From positions 1 to 64,000 of the forward strand of contig JAYUGC010000053.1 in assembly GCA_043767805.1 (NCBI GenBank): 64,000 nucleotides of DNA, written 5' to 3'. Of this stretch, positions 3-30,470 are shown in pieces. Both the position numbers and the translations under genes were made by a program. How positions within the stretch are numbered: position 1 is the first letter of the stretch; every line of letters starts with the position of its first letter. Under the pieces are notes generated by a model that had not been told where the DNA came from, searched no databases, and saw only the letters and a list, made by a program, of their open reading frames with translations. This DNA is from Pseudomonadota bacterium. Lineage in GTDB: Bacteria; Bdellovibrionota; FAC87; UBA2466.

Positions 3-470
3 GCCCCCCAAGGCCTCAGCTGGCGTGTCGACTGGCTTTTACAACACCCGGGCGCCGCGGGCGTGGTGGGCAACCTCGATAAAACGATGGATGCGGACGG
101 AAACGCGTTCGAGGTCTTCCCGGATTTGGCGGCCATGTACCAGAGACTCCCCGACCAAATCACCTGGGCCGGGATGCATACCCATCGCATCTTTCCCTCC
201 CCTTTGAACGCCACTTTGTTTCGCGCTTCCGTGTTTCGGGACATCGGCCGTTTCGACGAGAAACTCCTGAGGGCGGAAGATAGAGACTTTCTGTACCGCC
301 TCTTGAAACAAGTTTCGCTCGCGCACGTGAGCCGTCCCGTTTTCCAGTATCGCATTCACGACCAGAATATTTCGGTCAGGGCCCAAGGCAATCGGCTCCA
401 TGCCTTTACACAGTCGGAGAGCTACCGCATCCTGGTGGACATGGAGCACGGCATTCCCCTTAAGACATGA
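3..470 (+). CDS. GT2 family glycosyltransferase, 5'-partial (runs off the window edge)
   Basis: Frame open from base 3 (APQGLSWRVDWLLQHP...). C-terminal GT2 motifs IGRFDEKLLRAEDRDFLYRL and YRIHDQN. Resembles the 8842..9558 protein. Confidence 0.85.
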   Translation, partial: APQGLSWRVDWLLQHPGAAGVVGNLDKTMDADGNAFEVFPDLAAMYQRLPDQITWAGMHTHRIFPSPLNATLFRASVFRDIGRFDEKLLRAEDRDFLYRLLKQVSLAHVSRPVFQYRIHDQNISVRAQGNRLHAFTQSESYRILVDMEHGIPLKT

Positions 471-21966: not shown

Positions 21967-23337
21967 ATGAGAGCTCTGTTCGTCGGGATATTTCTATTTT
22001 TAACGGTGCCGGCGTTTGCCTGCCCCTTTGGGCGCCTAAGTAACTACGCCATAAATCTATTTCGAACCCTTTTTCCCGGCCCAGATCCCAACGCGCCTCA
22101 ATCGGATCGCCAGTGGAACAGGCTCCGGGAAAACTGGACGAAACAAGTAAAAGAACGATTCAAGGACGTCATCCGCGATCCGAACTGGGGATATGAACGG
22201 AATCGGCGCACGGACATTCGTTTCCTCGAGGAAAACCTAGGGTTCGAGTACGACGCGGTTCACGCCAAGATGATAGTGCCGCCTCGGGACGTTTTTCTGC
22301 GAAAGTACCGGGAGCTCATGGAACGGTACGTACGGGAAGGCATCGTCACCCCGGAAGAGGTCCTGATGCCGGGAAGTGTTTATGAATCCTTGAAAGGGGA
22401 CGACGTCGGAAATCTTCATATCGTTCCCTCGGATAACCCGCCCAAGAACGGTTGGTCTCCCGTTTCCCCGTCCCCAAGCCCTCGTCTCTACACGCGCATG
22501 TTAAAAGAGGGGTTTCATCCTTTTGATGACGGCAGCTACCATGATTCGATTGGACATATGCTGGGCTTTGCCCGCTACCCGAGATACATGGCGGCGATGC
22601 GAAAGCTCGCCAGCAATGCTCCCGTCGGAGAAGGCAAACTGACTCGCGACGAGTGGACATTACGTTACCTCTTTCTCCTCGAAGGATTTTCGTTGATGCC
22701 CGCGAGTTCGCGGCCGTTTTTGGAAACCACTTTGGCTCCCGTCTTCTCGCAGCGAAAGACGACGGAAGTTTTCACTTTGGAAGTAGAAAATTACTACAAG
22801 GAAATGCCTGACTTCGTCGTCCGGGCACAGGCGAAAAAACTCATCTTGCTTTACGAAAAATACGGCGAAAAGTATGCCGGGTCCGCTATGGAAATCGGAG
22901 GGATGGGGAATTACAGCGATCGAGCGGAAATGCGGCAGTCGCTCTACGGTCTCACTTCCACCGTCGCGCACTACAGCGGCCCGGAAGCTTCGAAAGACCC
23001 CAAACAGAAGGAACACTTGCTAAGAGCCATAGCCAACCTCGAAGTAGCGCTTTGGCGCTCGAGCTTCATCCCAATGGAAAAATTCGTCGAGGACTTCACC
23101 AGGCCCGATATTTCTCGCAGCAGCCCGGTCTTTGGTTATTTCGTTAGATCGGGCATTAGCCATGACGTGCCCTTTTATTCGTACGAGCAGCAGAAGATCA
23201 TCGAATCGTACGGCCTCGTCGCGCGTTCCCTTACGAAAACCACGGGACAGGAAGACATCGTGAAAGAGGCTTATTTCCAGGACTACGACAATCTCGGCCG
23301 GGATAAAAAGGGAAATATTCTCGAGGGCAGAAAATAG
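21967..23337 (+). CDS. Hypothetical exported protein
   Basis: 456-aa ORF with signal peptide (MRALFVGIFLFLTVPAFA); no family recognised. Confidence 0.7.
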   Translation: MRALFVGIFLFLTVPAFACPFGRLSNYAINLFRTLFPGPDPNAPQSDRQWNRLRENWTKQVKERFKDVIRDPNWGYERNRRTDIRFLEENLGFEYDAVHAKMIVPPRDVFLRKYRELMERYVREGIVTPEEVLMPGSVYESLKGDDVGNLHIVPSDNPPKNGWSPVSPSPSPRLYTRMLKEGFHPFDDGSYHDSIGHMLGFARYPRYMAAMRKLASNAPVGEGKLTRDEWTLRYLFLLEGFSLMPASSRPFLETTLAPVFSQRKTTEVFTLEVENYYKEMPDFVVRAQAKKLILLYEKYGEKYAGSAMEIGGMGNYSDRAEMRQSLYGLTSTVAHYSGPEASKDPKQKEHLLRAIANLEVALWRSSFIPMEKFVEDFTRPDISRSSPVFGYFVRSGISHDVPFYSYEQQKIIESYGLVARSLTKTTGQEDIVKEAYFQDYDNLGRDKKGNILEGRK

Positions 23338-23376: not shown

Positions 23377-23995
23377 AGGGCATAGCGCACCCGCTCACGC
23401 CAAGAGCGAAGGCCTCGCCACGCTTCTACCTATGTTGCGAGGGTGTGTTAAAGATTTTTTCAAAAGGCCCTAGGTTTCCGATGAGCTCCGTGTGCAGCCA
23501 AAATTGATAAAGCAGGTTCAGGCCAAACACCATACCAACGGCCCGCGGATCTATCCCGAGGCAGACGAACGGCACCAGCATCAACCACCCTCCGGTAATC
23601 CCCGCCGTCCAACCGAGGCGGTAGGCACCTGACAGCCGGAAATGCTCCGAGGAATGATGCACGAGATGACTCGCCCACGGCCAGCGCACCCTGTGCGAGA
23701 AGCGATGAACCCAGTAGTAGACGAAATCGACGGCGATAAAGAGCGCGATCCAATGCCATACCGAAATTAGCGAGAGAGTTTGCCATCGCCATTCGTAAAA
23801 CCACAGTAGTTCTTGAGAAGTCATCGGCACGGTAAAAAGGTGAAAGCCTTTCCCCAAGATCGCCACGCCCAGCGTGCAAAGCGCCTCCCTGCCTCCGTAG
23901 GAAGCGCCACACACGAAAAGCAAAATCAAAGCCTCTGCCACTAGCCCAAACGTAAAGAACGGAAGCGCGTGAATGAGAACCGCGACGTTTTCCAT
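23364..23995 (-). pseudogene. Sterol desaturase / fatty-acid hydroxylase family gene, internally deleted
   Basis: His boxes HRFSH and HLVHH present. ORF stops at NTPSQHR* inside the last His box; a C-terminal-like fragment EAWRGLRSWRERVRYALAPP* follows in another frame (23426..23364). Confidence 0.7.
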
Positions 23996-24157
23996 ACGTC
24001 TCACTTTAGCGAGCAATGCTGGCGGATGCATTTCGACTGTAAGCCATTGTATTCATCTCGTTTAATACGGATTAGTGAGGGACAGATCCCGCAACAATTC
24101 GGAAAGCATTGGCCCGTAACGTAGAGGAAGTAACAACACCTAAGGAGGCAAAGTCGC

Positions 24158-24766
24158 ATGAAACGAGTGATTTTAGTGGTTCAAGAGGACCCAGGCTTGG
24201 AGTCATTTTTGAGATCGCAACTGGACGAGGAACGCTACGTACTGAAAAGCGCCAGCTCGATTCTAGAAGCGCGCGCGCGTTTGAACGAAGCGCCGGTGGA
24301 TTTGGTCTTTTCTAAAATGTCGTTTCCCGATGGAGATGCTTCCGCCTTGAGCGATTGCTTGCGAGGGGCGACGCTCATCCCGCTCGAAGGATCCGCGCAC
24401 AGCCAGGAGATCGTCACGAAAGCCGTGGCCGCGCTCCGCCGCTTCTCCGATTTGTCAGTTGGAGACATCGTCGTCGATTTGAACCGCCGGGAAGTGAGAA
24501 ACAACGACACGCCCATTCGCCTGCGGCGCCGTGAATTCGATATTTTTTCGATTCTCGTCCGCCGCCGCGAGGAAATAGTGACTCGCCGGGAAATTCTGAA
24601 AGAGCTGCAAGAGCCTCGCGAATTCTCCGTGAGAAACTTGGACAGTCACGTCAGCCGTATCCGCAATGCCCTTCGCAAAGCCGGAGCGGACGATCTCATC
24701 ATCACCTCGGTCTACGGCATGGGCTATAAGGTCGAGCTTCTTCGCGAGAACGAGAGGGCCGGATGA
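24158..24766 (+). CDS. OmpR-type winged-helix regulator with a degenerate receiver domain
   Basis: RBS AAGGAGG; C-terminal REFDIF..VTRREIL..RNLDSHVSRIRN..SVYGMGY; receiver VDLVFSKMSFPDGD lacks the phosphoacceptor Asp. Confidence 0.85.
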   Translation: MKRVILVVQEDPGLESFLRSQLDEERYVLKSASSILEARARLNEAPVDLVFSKMSFPDGDASALSDCLRGATLIPLEGSAHSQEIVTKAVAALRRFSDLSVGDIVVDLNRREVRNNDTPIRLRRREFDIFSILVRRREEIVTRREILKELQEPREFSVRNLDSHVSRIRNALRKAGADDLIITSVYGMGYKVELLRENERAG

Positions 24767-25227: not shown

Positions 25228-26943
25228 TCAGGGCGGCCCGGACGATTCGGGCCGCTCCACCCCTGCCACGCGGAACTCTTGTCCGCCAAAGTGGTAGAGA
25301 TGCAAACGGAGCGGAGGCGTTTCGGAAACCCCTTGAAGCCCCGCGGTCACGTCGAGCACGAGGTAAGCGGGCTTCTGCTTCGTGCCGCCCGCTTGCTTGG
25401 GCAGCTCGACACAAACGCGCTCCGATCCCGTGCGAGCGGTAACGCCGAGCCGGCCCCCGGAAGTAAACGGCTCTCCTTGCCAGAGCTCGGCCTTATAAAC
25501 TCGCTTTGTCTGCGAAACGACTTTCGCGTAGACGGCGAGATCTCTAACACAGAGGCGTCCCTCGGAAGCTTCCACCGCTGGATGCGAAAGGGGCGAGAGC
25601 TTTCCCAGCCAGCGCGCCAGCACTTTGTCTCTGCGGCCGAGAATCGCTTTTCTCATCTCCCGGTCGAGGACTTTGTTTTGCAACTTCGCCTCGTCGATAA
25701 TCGCGTTCATATGGGCGTCGGTCATCTCGGCAATGAGACGAGCCATCCAAGCATCGTCTTCTTCGCGGCGGTTGAGCATGCCCGTGAGCGGATAGCCAGC
25801 GTGCCATTCATCCGGCACGAAATTCTCCGCGTTGTAGTAGCCCAGGGAAGAGCCTGCGGGCCCGAACTTGGCTCTATCCCAGGGCCGCTCAATGACGCCT
25901 AGAGTGGCGAAATCGGCCAGCACGTGACCGGCCTTCAAGTAGTACGTCTGACCGTGACGGCGGGACATTTCGTCCTGGGCCCAGATGCTCCCGAAGCAAT
26001 CTCCGAAATCGATGATGTTATGACGGACGTAGCCTTTTCCGTCCTTGTTCTCGTCAATCCACGTGGTCAGCGTGTTTTGATCGCGGGCATCGAAATGATT
26101 GGTCCAGGCATTGAGTACGTACCCGCCCCGGACTTCCCGGCGGTCCTCGTGATCGATGACGTCATTGGGATCATCGCCACGTCTGCCCTCGTAGCGCCAA
26201 GGGCCGAGAGGCTTTCCGCTCAAGAACTCGCTCGCGAAGCCGCGGACTTTGCCTTCCGCATTGGGTTTTACCACCTGAAAGGCTTTGTTCACATCTTCCT
26301 GGGTCATGGCCACTTTCGTGCCATCCGCCTTTTTGATGGTGGCCTTGGGCGATAGCTTCAGCACCTTGGGATTAAAATAGACGATCTGATTGCAAGGAGA
26401 AGGATAGCCGAGAAAATGCCAGATCTTCGAGCCGATGACGTCGGCCGCGGTAGCTCGCTCGGGCTGGTCCTCTCCGTCAAATTTGAAAAAGTACTTCTTC
26501 CCCGCGGCGGTCTTGACGAGAAAGCCGGGATTTAGCCCATCGGGCTTTCCGCCGATGACTTCGAACGGTCCATTGGGATCGAGAATGATGTCGCAGGCTC
26601 CGCGCGCGGCCTCGGTCGGCGTGGGCGGTTTCCCTTGGAGACGATTTGTAAACCAGGACGAATCGGGAACCTCGTCCCAGGCGTTCACGTTCTTCGCCCG
26701 GCGCGTGACGTCGAACGCAAACAGATGGGGAATCGGCCGAAGCATAGTGCCGTCGAAGACTTCCCAGAAGGTCGCCGGCTCGTACTCTTCGGGCTCGGCC
26801 GCGAACTCACGGAAATCTCCGTCGTCCTTCCACATCGTATCCTTGAGCGGAAAACGGCGCGGGCTCGACGCACAAGAGATCAGTAATGCCGACAACACCG
26901 CGCTAAAAAGCGCGTGTGAGGCCGACGAGAAAACGAAACTCAT
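25228..26943 (-). CDS. Lipoprotein with protein-kinase-like (HipA/PI3K/CotH-type) catalytic motifs
   Basis: Lipobox LISC; DEVPDSSWFTNR; Gly loop GGKPDGLNPG; YFFKFD; PERATA; NHFDARDQN; IIDFG. ATG 26943 follows an AGGGGG RBS. Confidence 0.7.
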   Translation of the reverse strand: MSFVFSSASHALFSAVLSALLISCASSPRRFPLKDTMWKDDGDFREFAAEPEEYEPATFWEVFDGTMLRPIPHLFAFDVTRRAKNVNAWDEVPDSSWFTNRLQGKPPTPTEAARGACDIILDPNGPFEVIGGKPDGLNPGFLVKTAAGKKYFFKFDGEDQPERATAADVIGSKIWHFLGYPSPCNQIVYFNPKVLKLSPKATIKKADGTKVAMTQEDVNKAFQVVKPNAEGKVRGFASEFLSGKPLGPWRYEGRRGDDPNDVIDHEDRREVRGGYVLNAWTNHFDARDQNTLTTWIDENKDGKGYVRHNIIDFGDCFGSIWAQDEMSRRHGQTYYLKAGHVLADFATLGVIERPWDRAKFGPAGSSLGYYNAENFVPDEWHAGYPLTGMLNRREEDDAWMARLIAEMTDAHMNAIIDEAKLQNKVLDREMRKAILGRRDKVLARWLGKLSPLSHPAVEASEGRLCVRDLAVYAKVVSQTKRVYKAELWQGEPFTSGGRLGVTARTGSERVCVELPKQAGGTKQKPAYLVLDVTAGLQGVSETPPLRLHLYHFGGQEFRVAGVERPESSGPP

Positions 26944-28261
26944 CGAACTTACCCCCTTGATCGAAGGGCTTAGAGGCAAAAGCTAAAGTCAGCGAGAACG
27001 TCTCGTCGGCATCGGTCGGAGCTTTCATGCCGATACCAAGACTCTTTCTCAAGCGATCGAACTTGAAGCCGCCGAGATCCCGCTGAAAGACGTTGCCCAC
27101 TTCGAAATTGGTAAACCCATCCAGGAAAGACCAGATGGGCCAGCGGTACTCGAGCGTGGCGGCGACCGCGCTTTCATCGACTAAACGCGCCTGCCGGAAA
27201 CCTAAAAGCGGGCGGCTACCGCCGAGCTGCATGAGCTCCGTGAACGGGACCGGGTTGGCTGAGCCACCCGTGGGCCGCACGAAGTGACCGTCGACGGTGA
27301 GACTGAGAACCCGAAACCGTCGGTTCAGAGCGGCAAAGCCGGTTAGACTTCCGCCGTAGGTGATCCAGCCACTCCGGAACTTTCCCCGCAAAGAGAAGGC
27401 ATGCTCAAAAAGCAGGCTCGCGCGCACTCCGAACATTTCGGAAGGCCGGGAGGGCCGATCTCCCCAGCCGACTTCGACCAATTGACGTAACGAGGTGTAT
27501 CCCGAGCGAAAGCCGTTCGGGGTGGGAAATACACCCGCCGAGATTTTCGACTCGATGCCGGGATCGTCGCAGCACGAGCCGTCTTGAAAGTCCGCCGATT
27601 TGAAACCGAGCTCCGCGCGGTACCAGCCCCGTTGTGGGATCTGATTCTTATAGCCAACGCTGACTTCCGTCTTTCTTAGCTGAAAACGGGAACGATCGGC
27701 TTCAAGCGTATTCCAGCCGACGCCGTGAAAGATGAGATCCGGCCGCTGGTTCCATTGCACGGTGGTGATTAGCTGAGAGTGAGAATCGAGCTGAGCCCGA
27801 TCTCTGACGCCAAGCCCGTAATAGCGCGAGCCTCCGTAAGCGATGTCGAACGCGAACTGATGCGATTCCCAGGGAAAACGCTTTCCTTTGAAATGAAGCC
27901 CGGCGCTGGGACGAAAACCGAAGTCGAGGAGAGCCGTCGGATACAGCGTGAACTGCTGCTCTTCTCCAAAAGAGAAAAGATCGACGAGCTGAGTGGGAAG
28001 CTTGTGCTTTTCGGCGTAGCGCCCGAAGGAGTTGATCGGCCAGCGGAAGCCGTACTCAGTGACGAGATAGACCGGATAAAAAAGAACTCTCGGTATCCAA
28101 AGAAGTTTTTGCCCCGTGGTCTCGGGCGCTTCTCCCCGGCCATCGTAGTTGGGCAGAGGTCTTTCCTCGGCCGGCGGGGCCTCGACGGCACGAGCGAGCG
28201 CGGGAGCTCCCAGCAAGGCAAGAAAAACCAAGGCGCTCCCGATATTACGCATTCTTCTCAT
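26903..28261 (-). CDS. Omp85/BamA-TamA-like outer-membrane beta-barrel, no obvious POTRA domains
   Basis: Signal peptide; amphipathic strands; LGGSRPLLGF (VRGY-loop equivalent); LEYRWPI, FEVGNVF, SLGIG; C-terminal Phe. Confidence 0.78.
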   Translation of the reverse strand: MRRMRNIGSALVFLALLGAPALARAVEAPPAEERPLPNYDGRGEAPETTGQKLLWIPRVLFYPVYLVTEYGFRWPINSFGRYAEKHKLPTQLVDLFSFGEEQQFTLYPTALLDFGFRPSAGLHFKGKRFPWESHQFAFDIAYGGSRYYGLGVRDRAQLDSHSQLITTVQWNQRPDLIFHGVGWNTLEADRSRFQLRKTEVSVGYKNQIPQRGWYRAELGFKSADFQDGSCCDDPGIESKISAGVFPTPNGFRSGYTSLRQLVEVGWGDRPSRPSEMFGVRASLLFEHAFSLRGKFRSGWITYGGSLTGFAALNRRFRVLSLTVDGHFVRPTGGSANPVPFTELMQLGGSRPLLGFRQARLVDESAVAATLEYRWPIWSFLDGFTNFEVGNVFQRDLGGFKFDRLRKSLGIGMKAPTDADETFSLTLAFASKPFDQGGKFDEFRFLVGLTRAF

Positions 28262-28295: not shown

Positions 28296-29114
28296 ATGCC
28301 GTATTTTCACCGTCTGATCCGCCTTTTCCTCGTCGTCAACTTGAGCACCGCCGTGGCAAGCGCCGCCGTTCCCGAAAAAGAACGCTCGCTTCCTTTTAGT
28401 AACGTTCAATACGCCCTTTTGCCCGTGCTGCTCGTGGGCAATGTCTTCTTGGCCTATCAGGCCCCGTCCGAAAAGGCCGGCTGGAGTAGCCCCATCCTCT
28501 TCGACCAAGCGGCGAGATCGGCTTTGCGCGCCGAAACCTCCGAAGGCCGCGCCGTCGCGGCCACGGTGAGCAATATCTTACTCTACTCTCTCGTTTCTTA
28601 TCCTTATGTCGTCGACGTGGCCGCCGATGCCGGCATCGCTCAAGGGGATGGAAAGACCGCGGGCCGGTTAGCTCTGATTAACTCGCAAGCCTTCCTGGCG
28701 ACCGGCGCCGTGGTTCAGATGGTGAAACTCCTTAGCGCGCGGCAGCGGCCCTTTCAGGGAGAGTGCGCGACGGACTCGAAATACGATCCAGGTTGCGACA
28801 GCCCCGATAGCCGGCTCAGTTTCTTCAGTGGTCACACGGCTTTTGCCTTCACGGCCGCAGGCCTTATCTGCGCACATCATAAGGCCCTCGATCTCGCGGG
28901 CGGCATGGCGCCTTGCTACGTCTCTTTAGGGCTCGCGCTCGCGACGGCAATGACGCGCGTAATGGCCGATCGCCACTACGCCTCGGACGTCCTGGTGGGA
29001 ACCGTGGTCGGCTTACTTTCCGGGTTCGTACTGACGCGCGCCACGCAAAGCGAGGGATCCTACGTCGTCAATCGCTCGGCTCCTTTGAGCATGACCTTCG
29101 CCTTTGGACTGTAG
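28296..29114 (+). CDS. PAP2 family phosphatase
   Basis: KLLSARQRP (KX6RP), FSGH, TRVMADRHYASD; signal-like N-terminus. Start moved from 28149 to ATG 28296. Confidence 0.9.
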   Translation: MPYFHRLIRLFLVVNLSTAVASAAVPEKERSLPFSNVQYALLPVLLVGNVFLAYQAPSEKAGWSSPILFDQAARSALRAETSEGRAVAATVSNILLYSLVSYPYVVDVAADAGIAQGDGKTAGRLALINSQAFLATGAVVQMVKLLSARQRPFQGECATDSKYDPGCDSPDSRLSFFSGHTAFAFTAAGLICAHHKALDLAGGMAPCYVSLGLALATAMTRVMADRHYASDVLVGTVVGLLSGFVLTRATQSEGSYVVNRSAPLSMTFAFGL

Positions 29115-29156: not shown

Positions 29157-30470
29157 ATGCCACTCTCTACGATCCGCAGCCTGGATCGCGATTCCGCGAA
29201 AAAGGTTGGACTGCTCTTTCTTTTCTTCTTTTTGATTATCGCGGCCTTCTGGACGCTAAAGCCCATGAGGACGTCGAACGTTATCAAGGCCTTCGGACCC
29301 GATTACTACCCGCTCTTCAAGCAGGGGTTCATCTTCCTGGTGCCCCTCTTCATGGGGCTCTTCACCTCGATGACCTGCTACCTGAACCGGGAACAGTTGG
29401 TCTACTTCTTCACCGGACTATTCCTCGCCACGAGCTGGGCCTTCTGGCTCGCCTTCGAAACGGTGGCCTCCCCCGCGGTGCAGATCCTCTTCTACTTCTA
29501 TGTCGATGCCTACATCACCCTGATGGTGGTGCTCTTCTTCTCTTATCTGAGCGACATCTATAAGCCGGAAGAAGCCAAAAAGTATTACGGCATCATCGGG
29601 CTCGGCGGCCTGCTGGGTGGCATCGTCGGCTCGGCCGTCTCTGGCTGGGCGAGCGAGCTGCTCGGAAACCACATCATTCTCACCATCTCCTTCTTCCTCA
29701 TTCCGATTTTCTTCATCGTGAATGCCCTGAAAGGCGTCGTTCCGCCTGCCAATACGTCGACAGTTTGCACGACGGAAGGAAAAACCGCCACGGGACGTTT
29801 CACCGAAGGTGTGACCCTCGTTTTCCGCTCTCGTTATCTACTCGCCATCGCGCTCATCGTCGGTCTTTACGAGATCATGAGCACGACCATCGATTACCAA
29901 TACACGGCCATGGCGGATGCTCGTTACACGGATCGCGCGCAGATGGCCGCCTTCCAAGGGCAAGTCGCGTTCTGGTCGAGTGTGGCTTCCGTCTTCGTGC
30001 AGATGTTCCTCACCACCTGGATTTTGCGATCGAAGGGCGTTCTCGTCGCCTTGATGATCCTTCCCGTGCTCATGCTGAGCGGCTCTTCGATGTTTCTCAT
30101 CTTCCCGATGCTCAGCGTGATTGCGTTTACGACTGGAGGAGACGCGGCGTTCTCGTACTCCATCAATCAGATCTCGAAAGAAGTGCTCTACGTGCCGCTC
30201 GATAGCGTCGCACGCTTCAAGAGCAAAGCCTTCATCGACATGTTCGTGCAGCGGGGCGCGAAGGCCGCGGGCGGCCTCGTGCTCATGGCCTACACGCTTT
30301 ATCTCCGTAAGCAGGGCTTCTCCACGAACTGGCTCATGGGCTTGAACATCGTTTGCGGCGTGGTTTGGGTCGGAGCCGTGCTCTACGCGAGCCGCGTCTT
30401 CAACGAGTACACCGCGGCGAAACCTGTCGAATCGCCGGTCGCGAAGTCGCAAATGAGCCAGGCGTCCTAA
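29157..30470 (+). CDS. NTT/TLC family nucleotide (ATP/ADP) translocase, MFS fold, no HEAT/cNMP extension
   Basis: About 12 TM; LKPMRTS, EAKKYYGIIGLGG.LGG, STTIDYQY, YSINQISKEVLYVPL...RFKSKAFIDMFVQRGAK. Confidence 0.85.
   Translation: MPLSTIRSLDRDSAKKVGLLFLFFFLIIAAFWTLKPMRTSNVIKAFGPDYYPLFKQGFIFLVPLFMGLFTSMTCYLNREQLVYFFTGLFLATSWAFWLAFETVASPAVQILFYFYVDAYITLMVVLFFSYLSDIYKPEEAKKYYGIIGLGGLLGGIVGSAVSGWASELLGNHIILTISFFLIPIFFIVNALKGVVPPANTSTVCTTEGKTATGRFTEGVTLVFRSRYLLAIALIVGLYEIMSTTIDYQYTAMADARYTDRAQMAAFQGQVAFWSSVASVFVQMFLTTWILRSKGVLVALMILPVLMLSGSSMFLIFPMLSVIAFTTGGDAAFSYSINQISKEVLYVPLDSVARFKSKAFIDMFVQRGAKAAGGLVLMAYTLYLRKQGFSTNWLMGLNIVCGVVWVGAVLYASRVFNEYTAAKPVESPVAKSQMSQAS

Follow-up and report, generated by a model that had tools for sequence, protein, structure and literature searches.

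A 64,000-nucleotide stretch of contig JAYUGC010000053.1 (hereafter the window) encodes a lipoprotein with an atypical kinase fold, whose gene overlaps that of an Omp85 barrel devoid of POTRA domains and lies close to the genes for a TLC/NTT-family membrane protein and a PAP2-family phosphatase (Table 1). We give about an even chance to the reading that this lipoprotein is an active periplasmic kinase of the HipA/CtkA-PI4KII-Fam20-CotH group, seated on a dedicated Omp85 barrel, with its nucleotide possibly provided by the TLC exchanger. The overlapping barrel gene, the exact co-occurrence of both genes in the window's phylum, the modelled complex and the TLC and PAP2 linkage are newly found here; an earlier note on this DNA had described the lipoprotein but not the neighbouring Omp85 barrel, TLC and PAP2 genes, from which most of the functional clues come.

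Table 1. Features of the kinase-fold lipoprotein locus (positions in the window).
Feature	Position	Strand	Remarks
Kinase-fold lipoprotein gene	25228..26943	-	571 aa, stop codon included; ORF and translation
Signal peptide and lipobox L-I-S-C, residues 1-24, C24 predicted lipidated Cys	26872..26943	-	sequence and homologue alignment
N-terminal extension, residues 25-118; predicted main docking surface for barrel	26590..26871	-	conservation and complex model
Atypical kinase domain, about residues 119-446	25606..26589	-	
N-lobe motifs: Gly-rich loop GGKPDGLNPG (K133, G136), beta3 K154, alphaC acid D168	26440..26553	-	conservation and hhalign
Catalytic loop H283-F-D285-A-R-D-Q-N290 and D312-F-G	26002..26097	-	conservation
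C-terminal Ig/FN3-like beta-sandwich, about residues 447-571	25231..25605	-	
POTRA-less (noNterm-type) Omp85 barrel gene, 452 aa	26903..28261	-	directly upstream; last 41 nt overlap lipoprotein gene start
PAP2-family phosphatase gene, divergent	28296..29114	+	PF01569 64.4 bits vs cut-off 27.2
TLC/NTT-family (nucleotide transporter-like) membrane protein gene	29157..30470	+	PF03219 70.2 bits vs cut-off 21

The listed open reading frame at the lipoprotein locus spans 25228..26979 on the minus strand and begins with TTG; the ATG at 26943 is the in-frame M13 of this frame, with the Shine-Dalgarno-like motif AAGGGGG about 8 nt 5' of it. Conservation and this motif argue against a mis-called reading frame. 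The four sequencing runs listed for the window are DNA from a single sediment study and may be where the assembly came from. The gene is present in one copy in its own genome and belongs to a large family without annotation that is widespread in Myxococcota, with more than 1661 homologues in a word-index search and 2183 representatives by HMMER; all five homologues checked for annotation were either a 'hypothetical protein' or nameless. An NCBIfam scan found no family matching the lipoprotein, and the chain sequences of the PDB returned no match at E <= 10, whether queried with the single protein or with a 40-sequence profile. A Pfam scan of 40 relatives yielded SBD_N in four of them (best E 1.8e-4) and other single matches that were scattered; all of these were taken as chance, since they are inconsistent among relatives and unrelated to a kinase fold. 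In the open-access literature no description was found of the family or of the kinase/barrel/TLC gene combination. The window's phylum holds further kinase-like relatives (L093-L096, E 1e-11 to 1e-18), which belong to no Pfam family and have neither a barrel nor a TLC gene adjoining.

The reading frame and all of the motifs listed in the earlier note are present in the translation, namely GGKPDGLNPG (residues 131-140), YFFKFD (K154), PERATA (E162), HFDARDQN (D285 to N290), IIDFGDC (D312-F-G) and, as the late L.RR motif, ILGRRDK (R437). In 122 lipoprotein representatives, chosen to share at most about 50% pairwise identity, K133 is kept in 91%, G136 in 95%, K154 in 93%, D285 in 96% and N290 in 95%, and further along the chain H308 in 99%, D312 in 98%, G318 in 99% and R437 in 100%, so the catalytic Lys, Asp, Asn and DFG residues put forward earlier are indeed conserved in homologues. 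No residue among K133, K154, D285, N290 and D312 is lost in 108 of the 122 or in any of 49 homologues derived from gene loci, the latter being invariant throughout the catalytic loop and the DFG region. One assignment has to be shifted, as the alphaC acid had been placed at E162 of the PERATA motif. The helix motif is there, but E162 is found in 74% of the wide set and varies in closer relatives (consensus QGPRAT), whereas position 168 of the alphaC-like helix is acidic in 88% of the 122 (53 D, 54 E); furthermore, hhalign against five HipA_2 proteins (prob 46.6, E 2e-4, 57 columns) aligned K154 with the Lys and D168 with the Glu that are invariant in them. By these alignments the alphaC acid is D168, six positions beyond E162; with the beta3 Lys, the catalytic Asp, the Asn five positions after it and the DFG Asp, the conserved set in the lipoprotein is complete.

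The AF2 model of the lipoprotein (pLDDT 84.0, pTM 0.86) places the Gly-rich loop between strands 127-132 and 140-144 and K154 within strand 150-155, followed by helix 163-178, while D285 and N290 stand just ahead of strand 291-297 and D312 just past strand 304-310. As the motifs coincide with canonical elements of a confident model, are conserved in the 122 representatives and go together with a conserved lipobox Cys, they are regarded as more than chance. Structure comparison, which included the HipA, CotH, Fam20 and PI4K groups, puts the protein within the bilobal atypical kinase fold (HipA/CtkA, PI3/4K, Fam20, CotH branch) and thereby supports the HipA/PI3-4K-like fold proposed earlier. The top Foldseek match was Fam20C (E 8.9e-5), and the best structural matches were CtkA (the best), Fam20C, PI4KII, CotH, MavQ and HipT. 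Matches to protein kinases and to lipid kinases differ by no more than about 1 Z unit, and the substrate class is for this reason a guess. The type II phosphatidylinositol 4-kinases PI4KIIalpha and PI4KIIbeta and the Legionella lipid kinase MavQ are among the closest known systems. Relative to CtkA (Helicobacter pylori JHP0940), HipA and HipT, the lipoprotein adds a lipobox, a 95-residue N-terminal extension, a C-terminal Ig-like domain and the pairing with an Omp85 barrel. It has no detectable sequence similarity to Fam20C (the Golgi casein kinase), Fam20A, Fam20B or FJX1, from which it also differs in being bacterial and, as predicted, lipid-anchored and barrel-bound. CotH spore-coat kinases, which act in the mother-cell cytoplasm where ATP is present, have neither a lipobox nor a barrel partner.

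At the level of sequence profiles the likeness to HipA is faint. Pfam HipA_2 (PF20613) covered only residues 128-214 of the lipoprotein, that is the N-lobe, at 13.8 bits against a cut-off of 27 (E 0.035), and gave weak matches in 3 of 40 relatives (best E 0.035). PF20613 matched nothing in the window's genome translated in six frames, a small HipA_2 profile found only chance-level matches in the PDB (E >= 0.55), and the family profile, compared by hhalign with E. coli HipA as a single sequence, gave no match (prob 0.4). A HipBA-type toxin can be ruled out: the protein bears a signal peptide and lipobox for export, there is no HipB-like antitoxin, and the neighbours are the Omp85 barrel, PAP2, TLC and an OmpR-type regulator.

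The N-terminus MSFVFSSASHALFSAVLSALLIS-C24 fits the lipobox pattern [LVI][ASTVI][GAS]C of Sec/SPII substrates, and the LISC lipobox noted earlier is shared by homologues: 47 of 49 locus-derived proteins have the Cys in the same alignment column, and the other two show AVGC and LVAC a few residues off. At +2, 46 of the 47 carry G, A or S, and none has D or K. The lipoprotein is thus probably exported by Sec and lipidated at C24. Two pairs of cysteines covary among the 122 representatives, C117/C184 being both present in 56, both absent in 65 and single in 1, and C465/C511 both present in 55, both absent in 56 and single in 11, which is consistent with an oxidising compartment. The N-terminal extension carries the motifs RFPL..W.D, PEEY and NVNA.DEVPDSSWF.NR, with D43, N87, E91, S95, W97 and R101 invariant or nearly so; in the AF2 model of the lipoprotein by itself the extension has low-to-middling pLDDT.

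The gene neighbourhood was surveyed at 79 kinase-gene loci. Greedy clustering of open reading frames at these loci fused kinase and barrel genes and produced antisense artefacts, and the counts by tblastn and profile search were relied on for that reason; in the clustering itself, the merged kinase/barrel cluster covered 75 loci, the TLC cluster 29 and every other cluster at most 9, two of the clusters at 8-9 loci arising artefactually from the strand opposite the kinase or barrel gene. By tblastn, a barrel gene adjoins the kinase gene in 64 of 79 loci, 52 times immediately upstream on the same strand, 9 times downstream on the same strand and 3 times in another arrangement; a profile search found it in 63. 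In the window's phylum the barrel occurs in 4 of 301 genomes, exactly the four with a strong kinase match, and in all five genomes whose kinase locus is without the barrel it is encoded elsewhere (E <= 1e-157). The window's response regulator, its 456-aa ORF and its His-box ORF had no match in the 79 loci.

The modelled barrel has 16 strands with a long L6 between strands 11 and 12, as expected of an Omp85 protein, and its chain ahead of strand 1 consists solely of a disordered stretch and a pair of helices (49-85, 88-96). Since the model contains no POTRA domain, the protein is assigned to the POTRA-less 'noNterm' forms, a class reportedly defined in an earlier study; in place of POTRA domains as in BamA, it has an N-terminal 'P-x-Y-D-G-R' motif and a 37-residue helix. 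Curated models scarcely register it, with no Pfam match at E <= 0.1 and 18.4 bits for NF047779 against a cut-off of 200. Its syntenic counterpart at locus L091, on the other hand, scores 43.4 bits with PF01103 (cut-off 24), and in the ESM-Atlas clusters nearest to the barrel 35-41% of members carry PF01103.

In 30 of the 79 loci a TLC-like gene is encoded no more than 5 kb from the kinase gene, 20 times on the same strand; 17 of the 30 are on the same strand at a distance of 300 bp or less (by extrapolation). Of 18 such neighbours examined, 17 exceed the PF03219 cut-off, and several are NTT-HEAT fusions. The window's TLC protein, of the family that includes the ATP/ADP translocases of Rickettsia, Chlamydia and plastids, likewise passes PF03219, but at 79.3 bits against a cut-off of 387.2 it falls far below TIGR00769 and is distant from the characterised transporters. 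This leaves room for an active enzyme beside a transporter that does not supply its ATP, the latter importing nucleotides or another solute and the kinase using a different donor or another ATP route. No TLC-like gene was found within 5 kb in 49 of the 79 loci, the proteins stay far under this equivalog-level NTP/NDP exchanger model, and the NTT homologues of free-living bacteria, including NTT-HEAT fusions with no known role, are described as known but uncharacterised in the available text of PMC5381601. The 6.4-10.6 Mb genomes, however, have 0-2 detectable TLC genes each, and in 3 of 3 genomes with a match one of them lies beside the kinase gene; in the window's own genome TLC genes are rare too, one of them beside the kinase gene. 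The close same-strand linkage points in the same direction, and the association is retained across two families of the window's phylum despite rearrangement, as in the second of these (kinase 30-34% identical) TLC, kinase, barrel and PAP2 genes are adjacent again in a changed order. All characterised family members carry nucleotides according to the part of PMC5381601 at hand, in which no proposal was found of an export role of NTT proteins that feeds a periplasmic enzyme. An active kinase with an unrelated transporter is an appreciable, if minor, possibility, and we keep to the reading in which the TLC exchanger may provide the nucleotide.

In models of the barrel with the kinase-fold lipoprotein, three runs reached ipSAE values of 0.82, 0.80 and 0.80, against 0.00 for the best control; in a calibration that holds roughly for the alignments used here, 116 of 157 solved complexes attained the ipSAE mark, as did 2 of 215 mismatched pairs. 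The runs had at least 95% of contacts in common, 116-126 contacts each and a partner pLDDT of at least 81. Kinase residues 29-93 lie inside the confident interface, and the barrel contributes residues 313-317, 372-384 and 412, which are periplasmic turns according to strand parity in the barrel model. The interface contains the most conserved non-catalytic residues, on the kinase N87 and D258-D261 and on the barrel R34, P37, Y39, G41, W55 and R58. The kinase is accordingly modelled, and thus predicted, to be periplasmic and to dock on the periplasmic face of the barrel via its N-terminal extension and two surface patches; the pairing is also supported by synteny and co-occurrence. In its 16 strands, long L6 and missing POTRA domain the partner resembles noNterm Omp85 proteins, and a lipoprotein at the periplasmic face of a barrel, as predicted here, recalls BAM. 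We know of no kinase-fold protein that partners BAM or a noNterm barrel.

The same pair could be read as a secretion system, with the barrel as a translocator of the two-partner secretion or surface-lipoprotein flippase type that would move the kinase to the surface or out of the cell, where it might act, for example, on prey or matrix. The order of barrel followed by passenger is that of TpsB/TpsA-type systems, the best structural match, CtkA, is titled in its PDB entry a cell-translocating proinflammatory kinase, and the host lineages (Myxococcota, one MAG labelled Pseudobdellovibrionaceae) include predators. NoNterm Omp85 genes are, moreover, often flanked by lipoprotein genes, and the role of these Omp85 proteins is left open in the available part of PMC11358297. 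The complex model, on the other hand, shows a folded kinase resting on the barrel, against its periplasmic turns and its N-terminal helices; the confidence, size and conservation of this interface argue for a stable assembly more than for a transit state. The long L6 loop is typical of BamA-like barrels, and the link to an inner-membrane nucleotide transporter suits a periplasmic enzyme and not a surface one. We consider the kinase rather unlikely to be cargo and retain the periplasmic, barrel-bound enzyme as the preferred reading.

Somewhat less probable again is a pseudo-enzyme, in which the kinase fold would serve as a structural accessory of a specialised Omp85 machine, comparable to BamB-E for BamA, with or without nucleotide binding and without phosphotransfer. 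Many kinase-fold proteins are pseudokinases, for instance Fam20A, which is also among the structural matches. At least one of the residues K133, K154, D285, N290 and D312 is lost in 14 of the 122 representatives, and the positions invariant at 100% outside the catalytic set are D258, R268, R269, R272, D396, W399 and R437; these strictest invariants are non-catalytic, and D258-D261 belong to the predicted barrel interface. D285 as base and N290 and D312 as metal ligands are nonetheless kept at 95-98% at a divergence down to about 30% identity, which is unusual for pseudokinases, and the linkage to a nucleotide transporter speaks against an inactive protein as well. Even if the enzyme were inactive, the pair would represent a novel type of Omp85-lipoprotein assembly. 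A different chemistry, be it AMPylation or some other transfer of a nucleotidyl or acyl-phosphate group, is very improbable, for although kinase folds are chemically versatile (SelO and SidJ catalyse chemistry other than phosphorylation) and H265, R268, R269 and R272 are strongly conserved with no assigned role, the best structural matches CtkA, Fam20C, PI4KII, CotH, MavQ and HipT are all phosphotransferases and D-x4-N plus DFG is the canonical phosphotransfer set.

For the active, barrel-bound lipoprotein we infer kinase catalysis, and with it a substrate class, ATP export and a direction of transport, in the following form. After Sec export the protein would be lipidated at C24 and anchored in the outer membrane, and its N-terminal extension and two surface patches would dock it under the POTRA-less Omp85 barrel. 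There it would most likely pass the gamma-phosphate of a nucleotide to an envelope component at or near the barrel, with the phosphates held by K154 and D168, the metal bound by N290 and D312, and D285 serving as catalytic base. A TLC/NTT-type exchanger might deliver the nucleotide to the periplasm and take back ADP. As for the acceptor, we lean weakly towards a lipid or a lipid-linked outer-membrane glycan over a protein client, with PAP2 as a possible reverse activity. The full three-part machine, with NTT/TLC exporting ATP and retrieving ADP to power a barrel-clamped kinase that phosphorylates lipids, LPS or client proteins at the Omp85 gate, and PAP2 reversing the mark, is more doubtful than probable and is offered as a tentative proposal.

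The periplasm and the outer membrane are textbook ATP-free compartments, ATP not being known to be available in the periplasm, and to our knowledge every known outer-membrane machine takes its energy from the inner membrane or from folding. The family makes it testable whether nucleotide-dependent chemistry takes place in the bacterial envelope and by which route ATP would come there, and it offers a first functional handle on two orphan groups, the POTRA-less Omp85 proteins and the NTT homologues of free-living bacteria. Should the three-part machine prove real, the bacterial outer membrane would gain its first dedicated ATP-consuming enzyme system, and the lumenal Fam20-type kinases, whose activity relies on ATP being imported into the secretory pathway, would have a prokaryotic counterpart.

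The PAP2 open reading frame is listed from TTG 28149, the internal Met at 28296 being the probable start. A PAP2 gene is found near the kinase gene in 9 of the 79 loci, and it is present in both loci of the second family of the window's phylum.

The lipoprotein can be rated as a predicted exported atypical kinase; that three or four genes of its locus together encode an ATP-fed outer-membrane system of a new type is less certain. Its minus-strand open reading frame extends over 25228–26979 from a TTG start, and an in-frame ATG at 26943, twelve codons past the TTG and preceded by AAGGGGG at a distance of ≈ 8 nt, bears out the frame and start taken in the earlier note and gives a product of 571 amino acids. 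The motifs quoted there were all found in the same order, from the LISC lipobox through the Gly-rich loop, K154, PERATA, HFDARDQN and IIDFGDC to R437; features of the locus and of the protein are compiled in the table.

Features of the locus (nucleotide positions) and of the kinase-fold lipoprotein (residue numbers; percentages are conservation among 122 full-length representatives of the family)
Feature	Position	Strand	Remarks
456-aa ORF	21967-23337	+	N-terminal hydrophobic signal-like segment
201-aa membrane ORF	23426-24031	-	His-box motifs HRFSH, HLVHH, read from translation
OmpR-type regulator	24158-24766	+	convergent with kinase gene; Trans_reg_C 59.5 bits
Kinase-fold lipoprotein	25228-26943	-
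POTRA-less Omp85 barrel	26903-28261	-	directly upstream, 41-nt overlap with lipoprotein gene
PAP2 phosphatase	28296-29114	+	divergent from barrel gene; probable start at an internal Met; PF01569, 64.4 bits
TLC/NTT-family transporter	29157-30470	+	divergent from barrel gene; PF03219 70.2 bits, cut-off 21
Lipobox LISC	C24
GGKPDGLNPG	131-140		K133 91%, G136 95%
YFFKFD	K154		93%
PERATA	E162
HFDARDQN	D285, N290		96%, 95%
	H308		99%
IIDFGDC	D312		98%
	G318		99%
ILGRRDK	R437

The protein is a member of no curated family. Pfam HipA_2 (PF20613) gave a sub-threshold match of 13.8 bits (cut-off 27) to the N-lobe only (residues 128–214), and the lipoprotein further differs from this family in its extra N- and C-terminal domains and in the lack of an antitoxin context. 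An NCBIfam scan matched no family, and a PDB sequence search returned nothing at E ≤ 10, with either the single protein or a 40-sequence profile as query. A word-index search scored 8000 candidates, at least 1661 of which were matches at E ≤ 1e-3; among the 120 matches listed, none carried a precomputed Pfam domain and any names read 'hypothetical protein'. The exhaustive HMMER search against 50%-identity representatives gave 2183 proteins at E ≤ 1e-3, of which 1451 also reached ≤ 1e-10 and 595 ≤ 1e-30, such that the family is large, yet unrecognised by curated libraries. Among the word-index matches listed and the fetched loci, named relatives stem nearly all from Myxococcota MAGs (Polyangia, Sandaracinaceae, Bradymonadales, Myxococcaceae), and Acidobacteriota are also mentioned in ESM-Atlas clusters. 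A search of open-access papers and bioRxiv yielded no account of this family or of a combination of kinase, Omp85 and NTT.

An AlphaFold2 model from 40 homologues (pLDDT 84.0, pTM 0.86) places the catalytic residues on canonical kinase elements. Foldseek against the PDB returned Fam20C at the top (E 8.9e-5), followed by Fam20A, VPS34, PI4KIIα, CtkA and Rio2; structural match figures were 12.6 for DrFam20C1, 12.2 for PI4KIIβ, 12.0 for PI4KIIα, 11.6 for CotH, 11.0 for MavQ and 10.2 for HipT. All are atypical kinases, each spanning model residues ≈ 110–450, and the comparison with HipA, CotH, Fam20 and PI4K suggested in the earlier note is therefore positive for all four groups. The fold resembles that of HipA/CtkA, PI4KII, Fam20 and CotH kinases, and a likeness in working is proposed. 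Protein kinases (CtkA, Fam20C, CotH, HipT) and lipid kinases (PI4KII, MavQ) were tied as structural matches; given the lipid anchor and a PAP2 gene nearby, we slightly favour a lipid or a lipid-linked glycan as substrate.

The lipoprotein would be an active nucleotide-dependent phosphotransferase. Conservation of the catalytic residues in homologues holds widely: K133, K154, D285, N290 and D312 are jointly intact in 108 of the 122 representatives and invariant in 49 locus-derived homologues. The remaining 14, about five of which look broadly degenerate, lack at least one of the five, a point to be set beside the rival view of the lipoprotein as a pseudo-enzyme accessory of the barrel; another rival would have the kinase fold carry out non-phosphoryl chemistry. 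The αC acid anticipated in the earlier note is present on an αC-like helix, its assignment to E162 being replaced by D168: E162 is kept in 74% of the wide set and varies between close relatives, while position 168 is occupied by D in 53 and by E in 54 of the 122. Along these lines, a profile–profile alignment with five HipA_2 proteins of the window's phylum (probability 46.6, E 2e-4, 57 columns) puts K154 opposite an invariant Lys and D168 opposite an invariant Glu.

With respect to export, 47 of 49 locus-derived homologues align a Cys at the lipobox position, the other two having AVGC or LVAC a few residues off. In E. coli, the identity of the residue after this cysteine bears on outer-membrane targeting; in 46 of 47 homologues it is G, A or S, which fits such targeting. 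Furthermore, C117/C184 (a complete pair in 56 representatives, neither cysteine in 65, one alone in 1) and C465/C511 (55, 56 and 11, respectively) covary among the 122, a sequence pattern typical of disulfides, and would point to an oxidising compartment.

The barrel (AlphaFold2 pLDDT 87.6) features a signal peptide, a disordered stretch with a conserved P-x-Y-D-G-R, helices 49–85 and 88–96, and 16 strands, of which 11 and 12 are joined by a long loop. No POTRA domain was present in the model, which therefore assigns the protein to the 'noNterm' Omp85 class. In PMC11358297, this class is described without known function, its genes often being flanked by lipoprotein genes. The Omp85 lid-lock motif is quoted there as (L/M)RG(W/Y), in place of which loop 6 (residues ≈ 350–364) reads PLLGFRQARL (family consensus PMxGFLxGRLxGRS), and this subfamily may have a modified lid-lock; the FLDG motif of strand 13 is kept, with D381 near-invariant.

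In 79 loci from species-representative genomes, the barrel gene adjoins the kinase gene in 64 (63 by profile search). Of these, 52 have the two genes on one strand with the barrel gene directly upstream, 9 have a same-strand barrel gene downstream, and 3 are arranged in other ways. Four of the 15 barrel-less loci have almost no upstream flank, and all five genomes tested with such a locus hold a strong barrel homologue elsewhere (E ≤ 1e-157), two of them with a second, divergent adjacent kinase–barrel pair. Extra kinase-like copies in two Myxococcota genomes (G308:C326, G308:C338, G309:C38) each contain one in-frame stop, TGA or TAG, and two of the three adjoin divergent barrel copies; these may represent paralogous pairs in decay, or else sequencing errors.

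Co-folding of the mature lipoprotein (25–571) with the mature barrel (26–452), using a 49-row alignment each, gave ipSAE values of 0.82, 0.80 and 0.80, the best of three controls scoring 0.00; at least 95% of contacts were common to the runs, and partner pLDDT was at least 81. In calibration, 116 of 157 solved complexes attained the ipSAE mark, as did 2 of 215 mismatched pairs, figures that are a rough guide for custom alignments; the prediction supports binding of the lipoprotein to the barrel. The predicted interface comprises the N-terminal extension 29–93 (including N87), the D257–V262 patch, 323–349, 356 and 561 of the lipoprotein, and 29–89 (P-x-Y-D-G-R and one face of the long helix), 313–317, 372–384 and 412 of the barrel. 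Strand parity in the barrel model identifies the last three as turns T5 and T6, both periplasmic, and the end of strand 14 on the periplasmic side, so that the kinase is predicted on the periplasmic face and would act at the periplasmic mouth or rim. The location of NVNA.DE and DDPNDV in this interface would explain why these non-catalytic motifs are among the most conserved of the family. A further rival takes the lipoprotein as cargo that the barrel exports to the cell surface.

For the putative kinase at the barrel, the TLC exchanger would supply periplasmic ATP and recover ADP, and the PAP2 phosphatase may take the phosphate off again. The transporter scored 79.3 against TIGR00769 (cut-off 387.2). 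Within 5 kb of the kinase gene, 30 of the 79 loci carry a TLC-like gene and 9 a PAP2 gene; 20 of the 30 share the kinase gene's strand, 17 with an extrapolated gap ≤ 300 bp, and 17 of 18 neighbouring transporters scanned exceeded the PF03219 cut-off. TLC genes are rare in kinase-bearing genomes: five Myxococcota genomes (6.4–10.6 Mb) gave 0, 1, 1, 2 and 0 six-frame matches, weaker ones evidently being missed relative to Pfam on ORFs, and each of the three with a match has one within the kinase locus, as has the window's genome, which holds two in total. In a second family of the same phylum (L091, L092), the four genes are again adjacent, with TLC on the opposite side; linkage that outlasts rearrangement at 30–34% kinase identity argues for a functional tie. 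According to PMC5381601, characterised NTTs all carry nucleotides, free-living bacterial homologues are without assigned role, and the NTT-HEAT architecture is widely conserved and uncharacterised; the rival here is an active kinase whose TLC neighbour serves another role. Five of the 18 transporters, beside the kinase gene in L019, L049, L060, L071 and L077, are NTT-HEAT fusions of 900–1320 aa (PF03219 and HEAT_2), and the neighbourhood is a possible handle on their function.

The closest locus, titled as from an uncultured Pseudobdellovibrionaceae MAG, shows 69% identity and the same gene order. Among 301 sampled genomes of the window's phylum, the kinase profile matched 8 at E ≤ 1e-10, only 4 strongly, and the barrel occurs in exactly these 4. 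The kinase is 45–50% identical to Myxococcota proteins and thus nearer to them than to the other same-phylum family; the opposite holds for the TLC protein, 45% identical to that of L091 and L092. This occurrence and these opposite affinities suggest that the cassette is patchy in the phylum, and mosaic or horizontally transferred. The superfamily extends beyond the Omp85-linked clade: four distant same-phylum relatives (L093–L096, 523–632 aa), without Pfam family, match in the catalytic core alone (E 1e-11 to 1e-18), and their neighbourhoods hold no barrel, TLC or PAP2 gene; DUF2252, an AMP-binding enzyme and a SIS-CBS protein are among the products encoded there.

On the other side of the kinase gene, the 456-aa ORF matched no Pfam or NCBIfam family and has no homologue in the 79 related loci. 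The OmpR-type regulator has no counterpart beside the kinase gene in any of these 79; its receiver is short and sub-threshold (Response_reg 25.4 bits vs 30.2, profile positions 1–56 of 111 only) and may be degenerate and phosphorylation-independent. The His-boxes of the 201-aa ORF presumably recall the fatty-acid hydroxylase/sterol desaturase superfamily.
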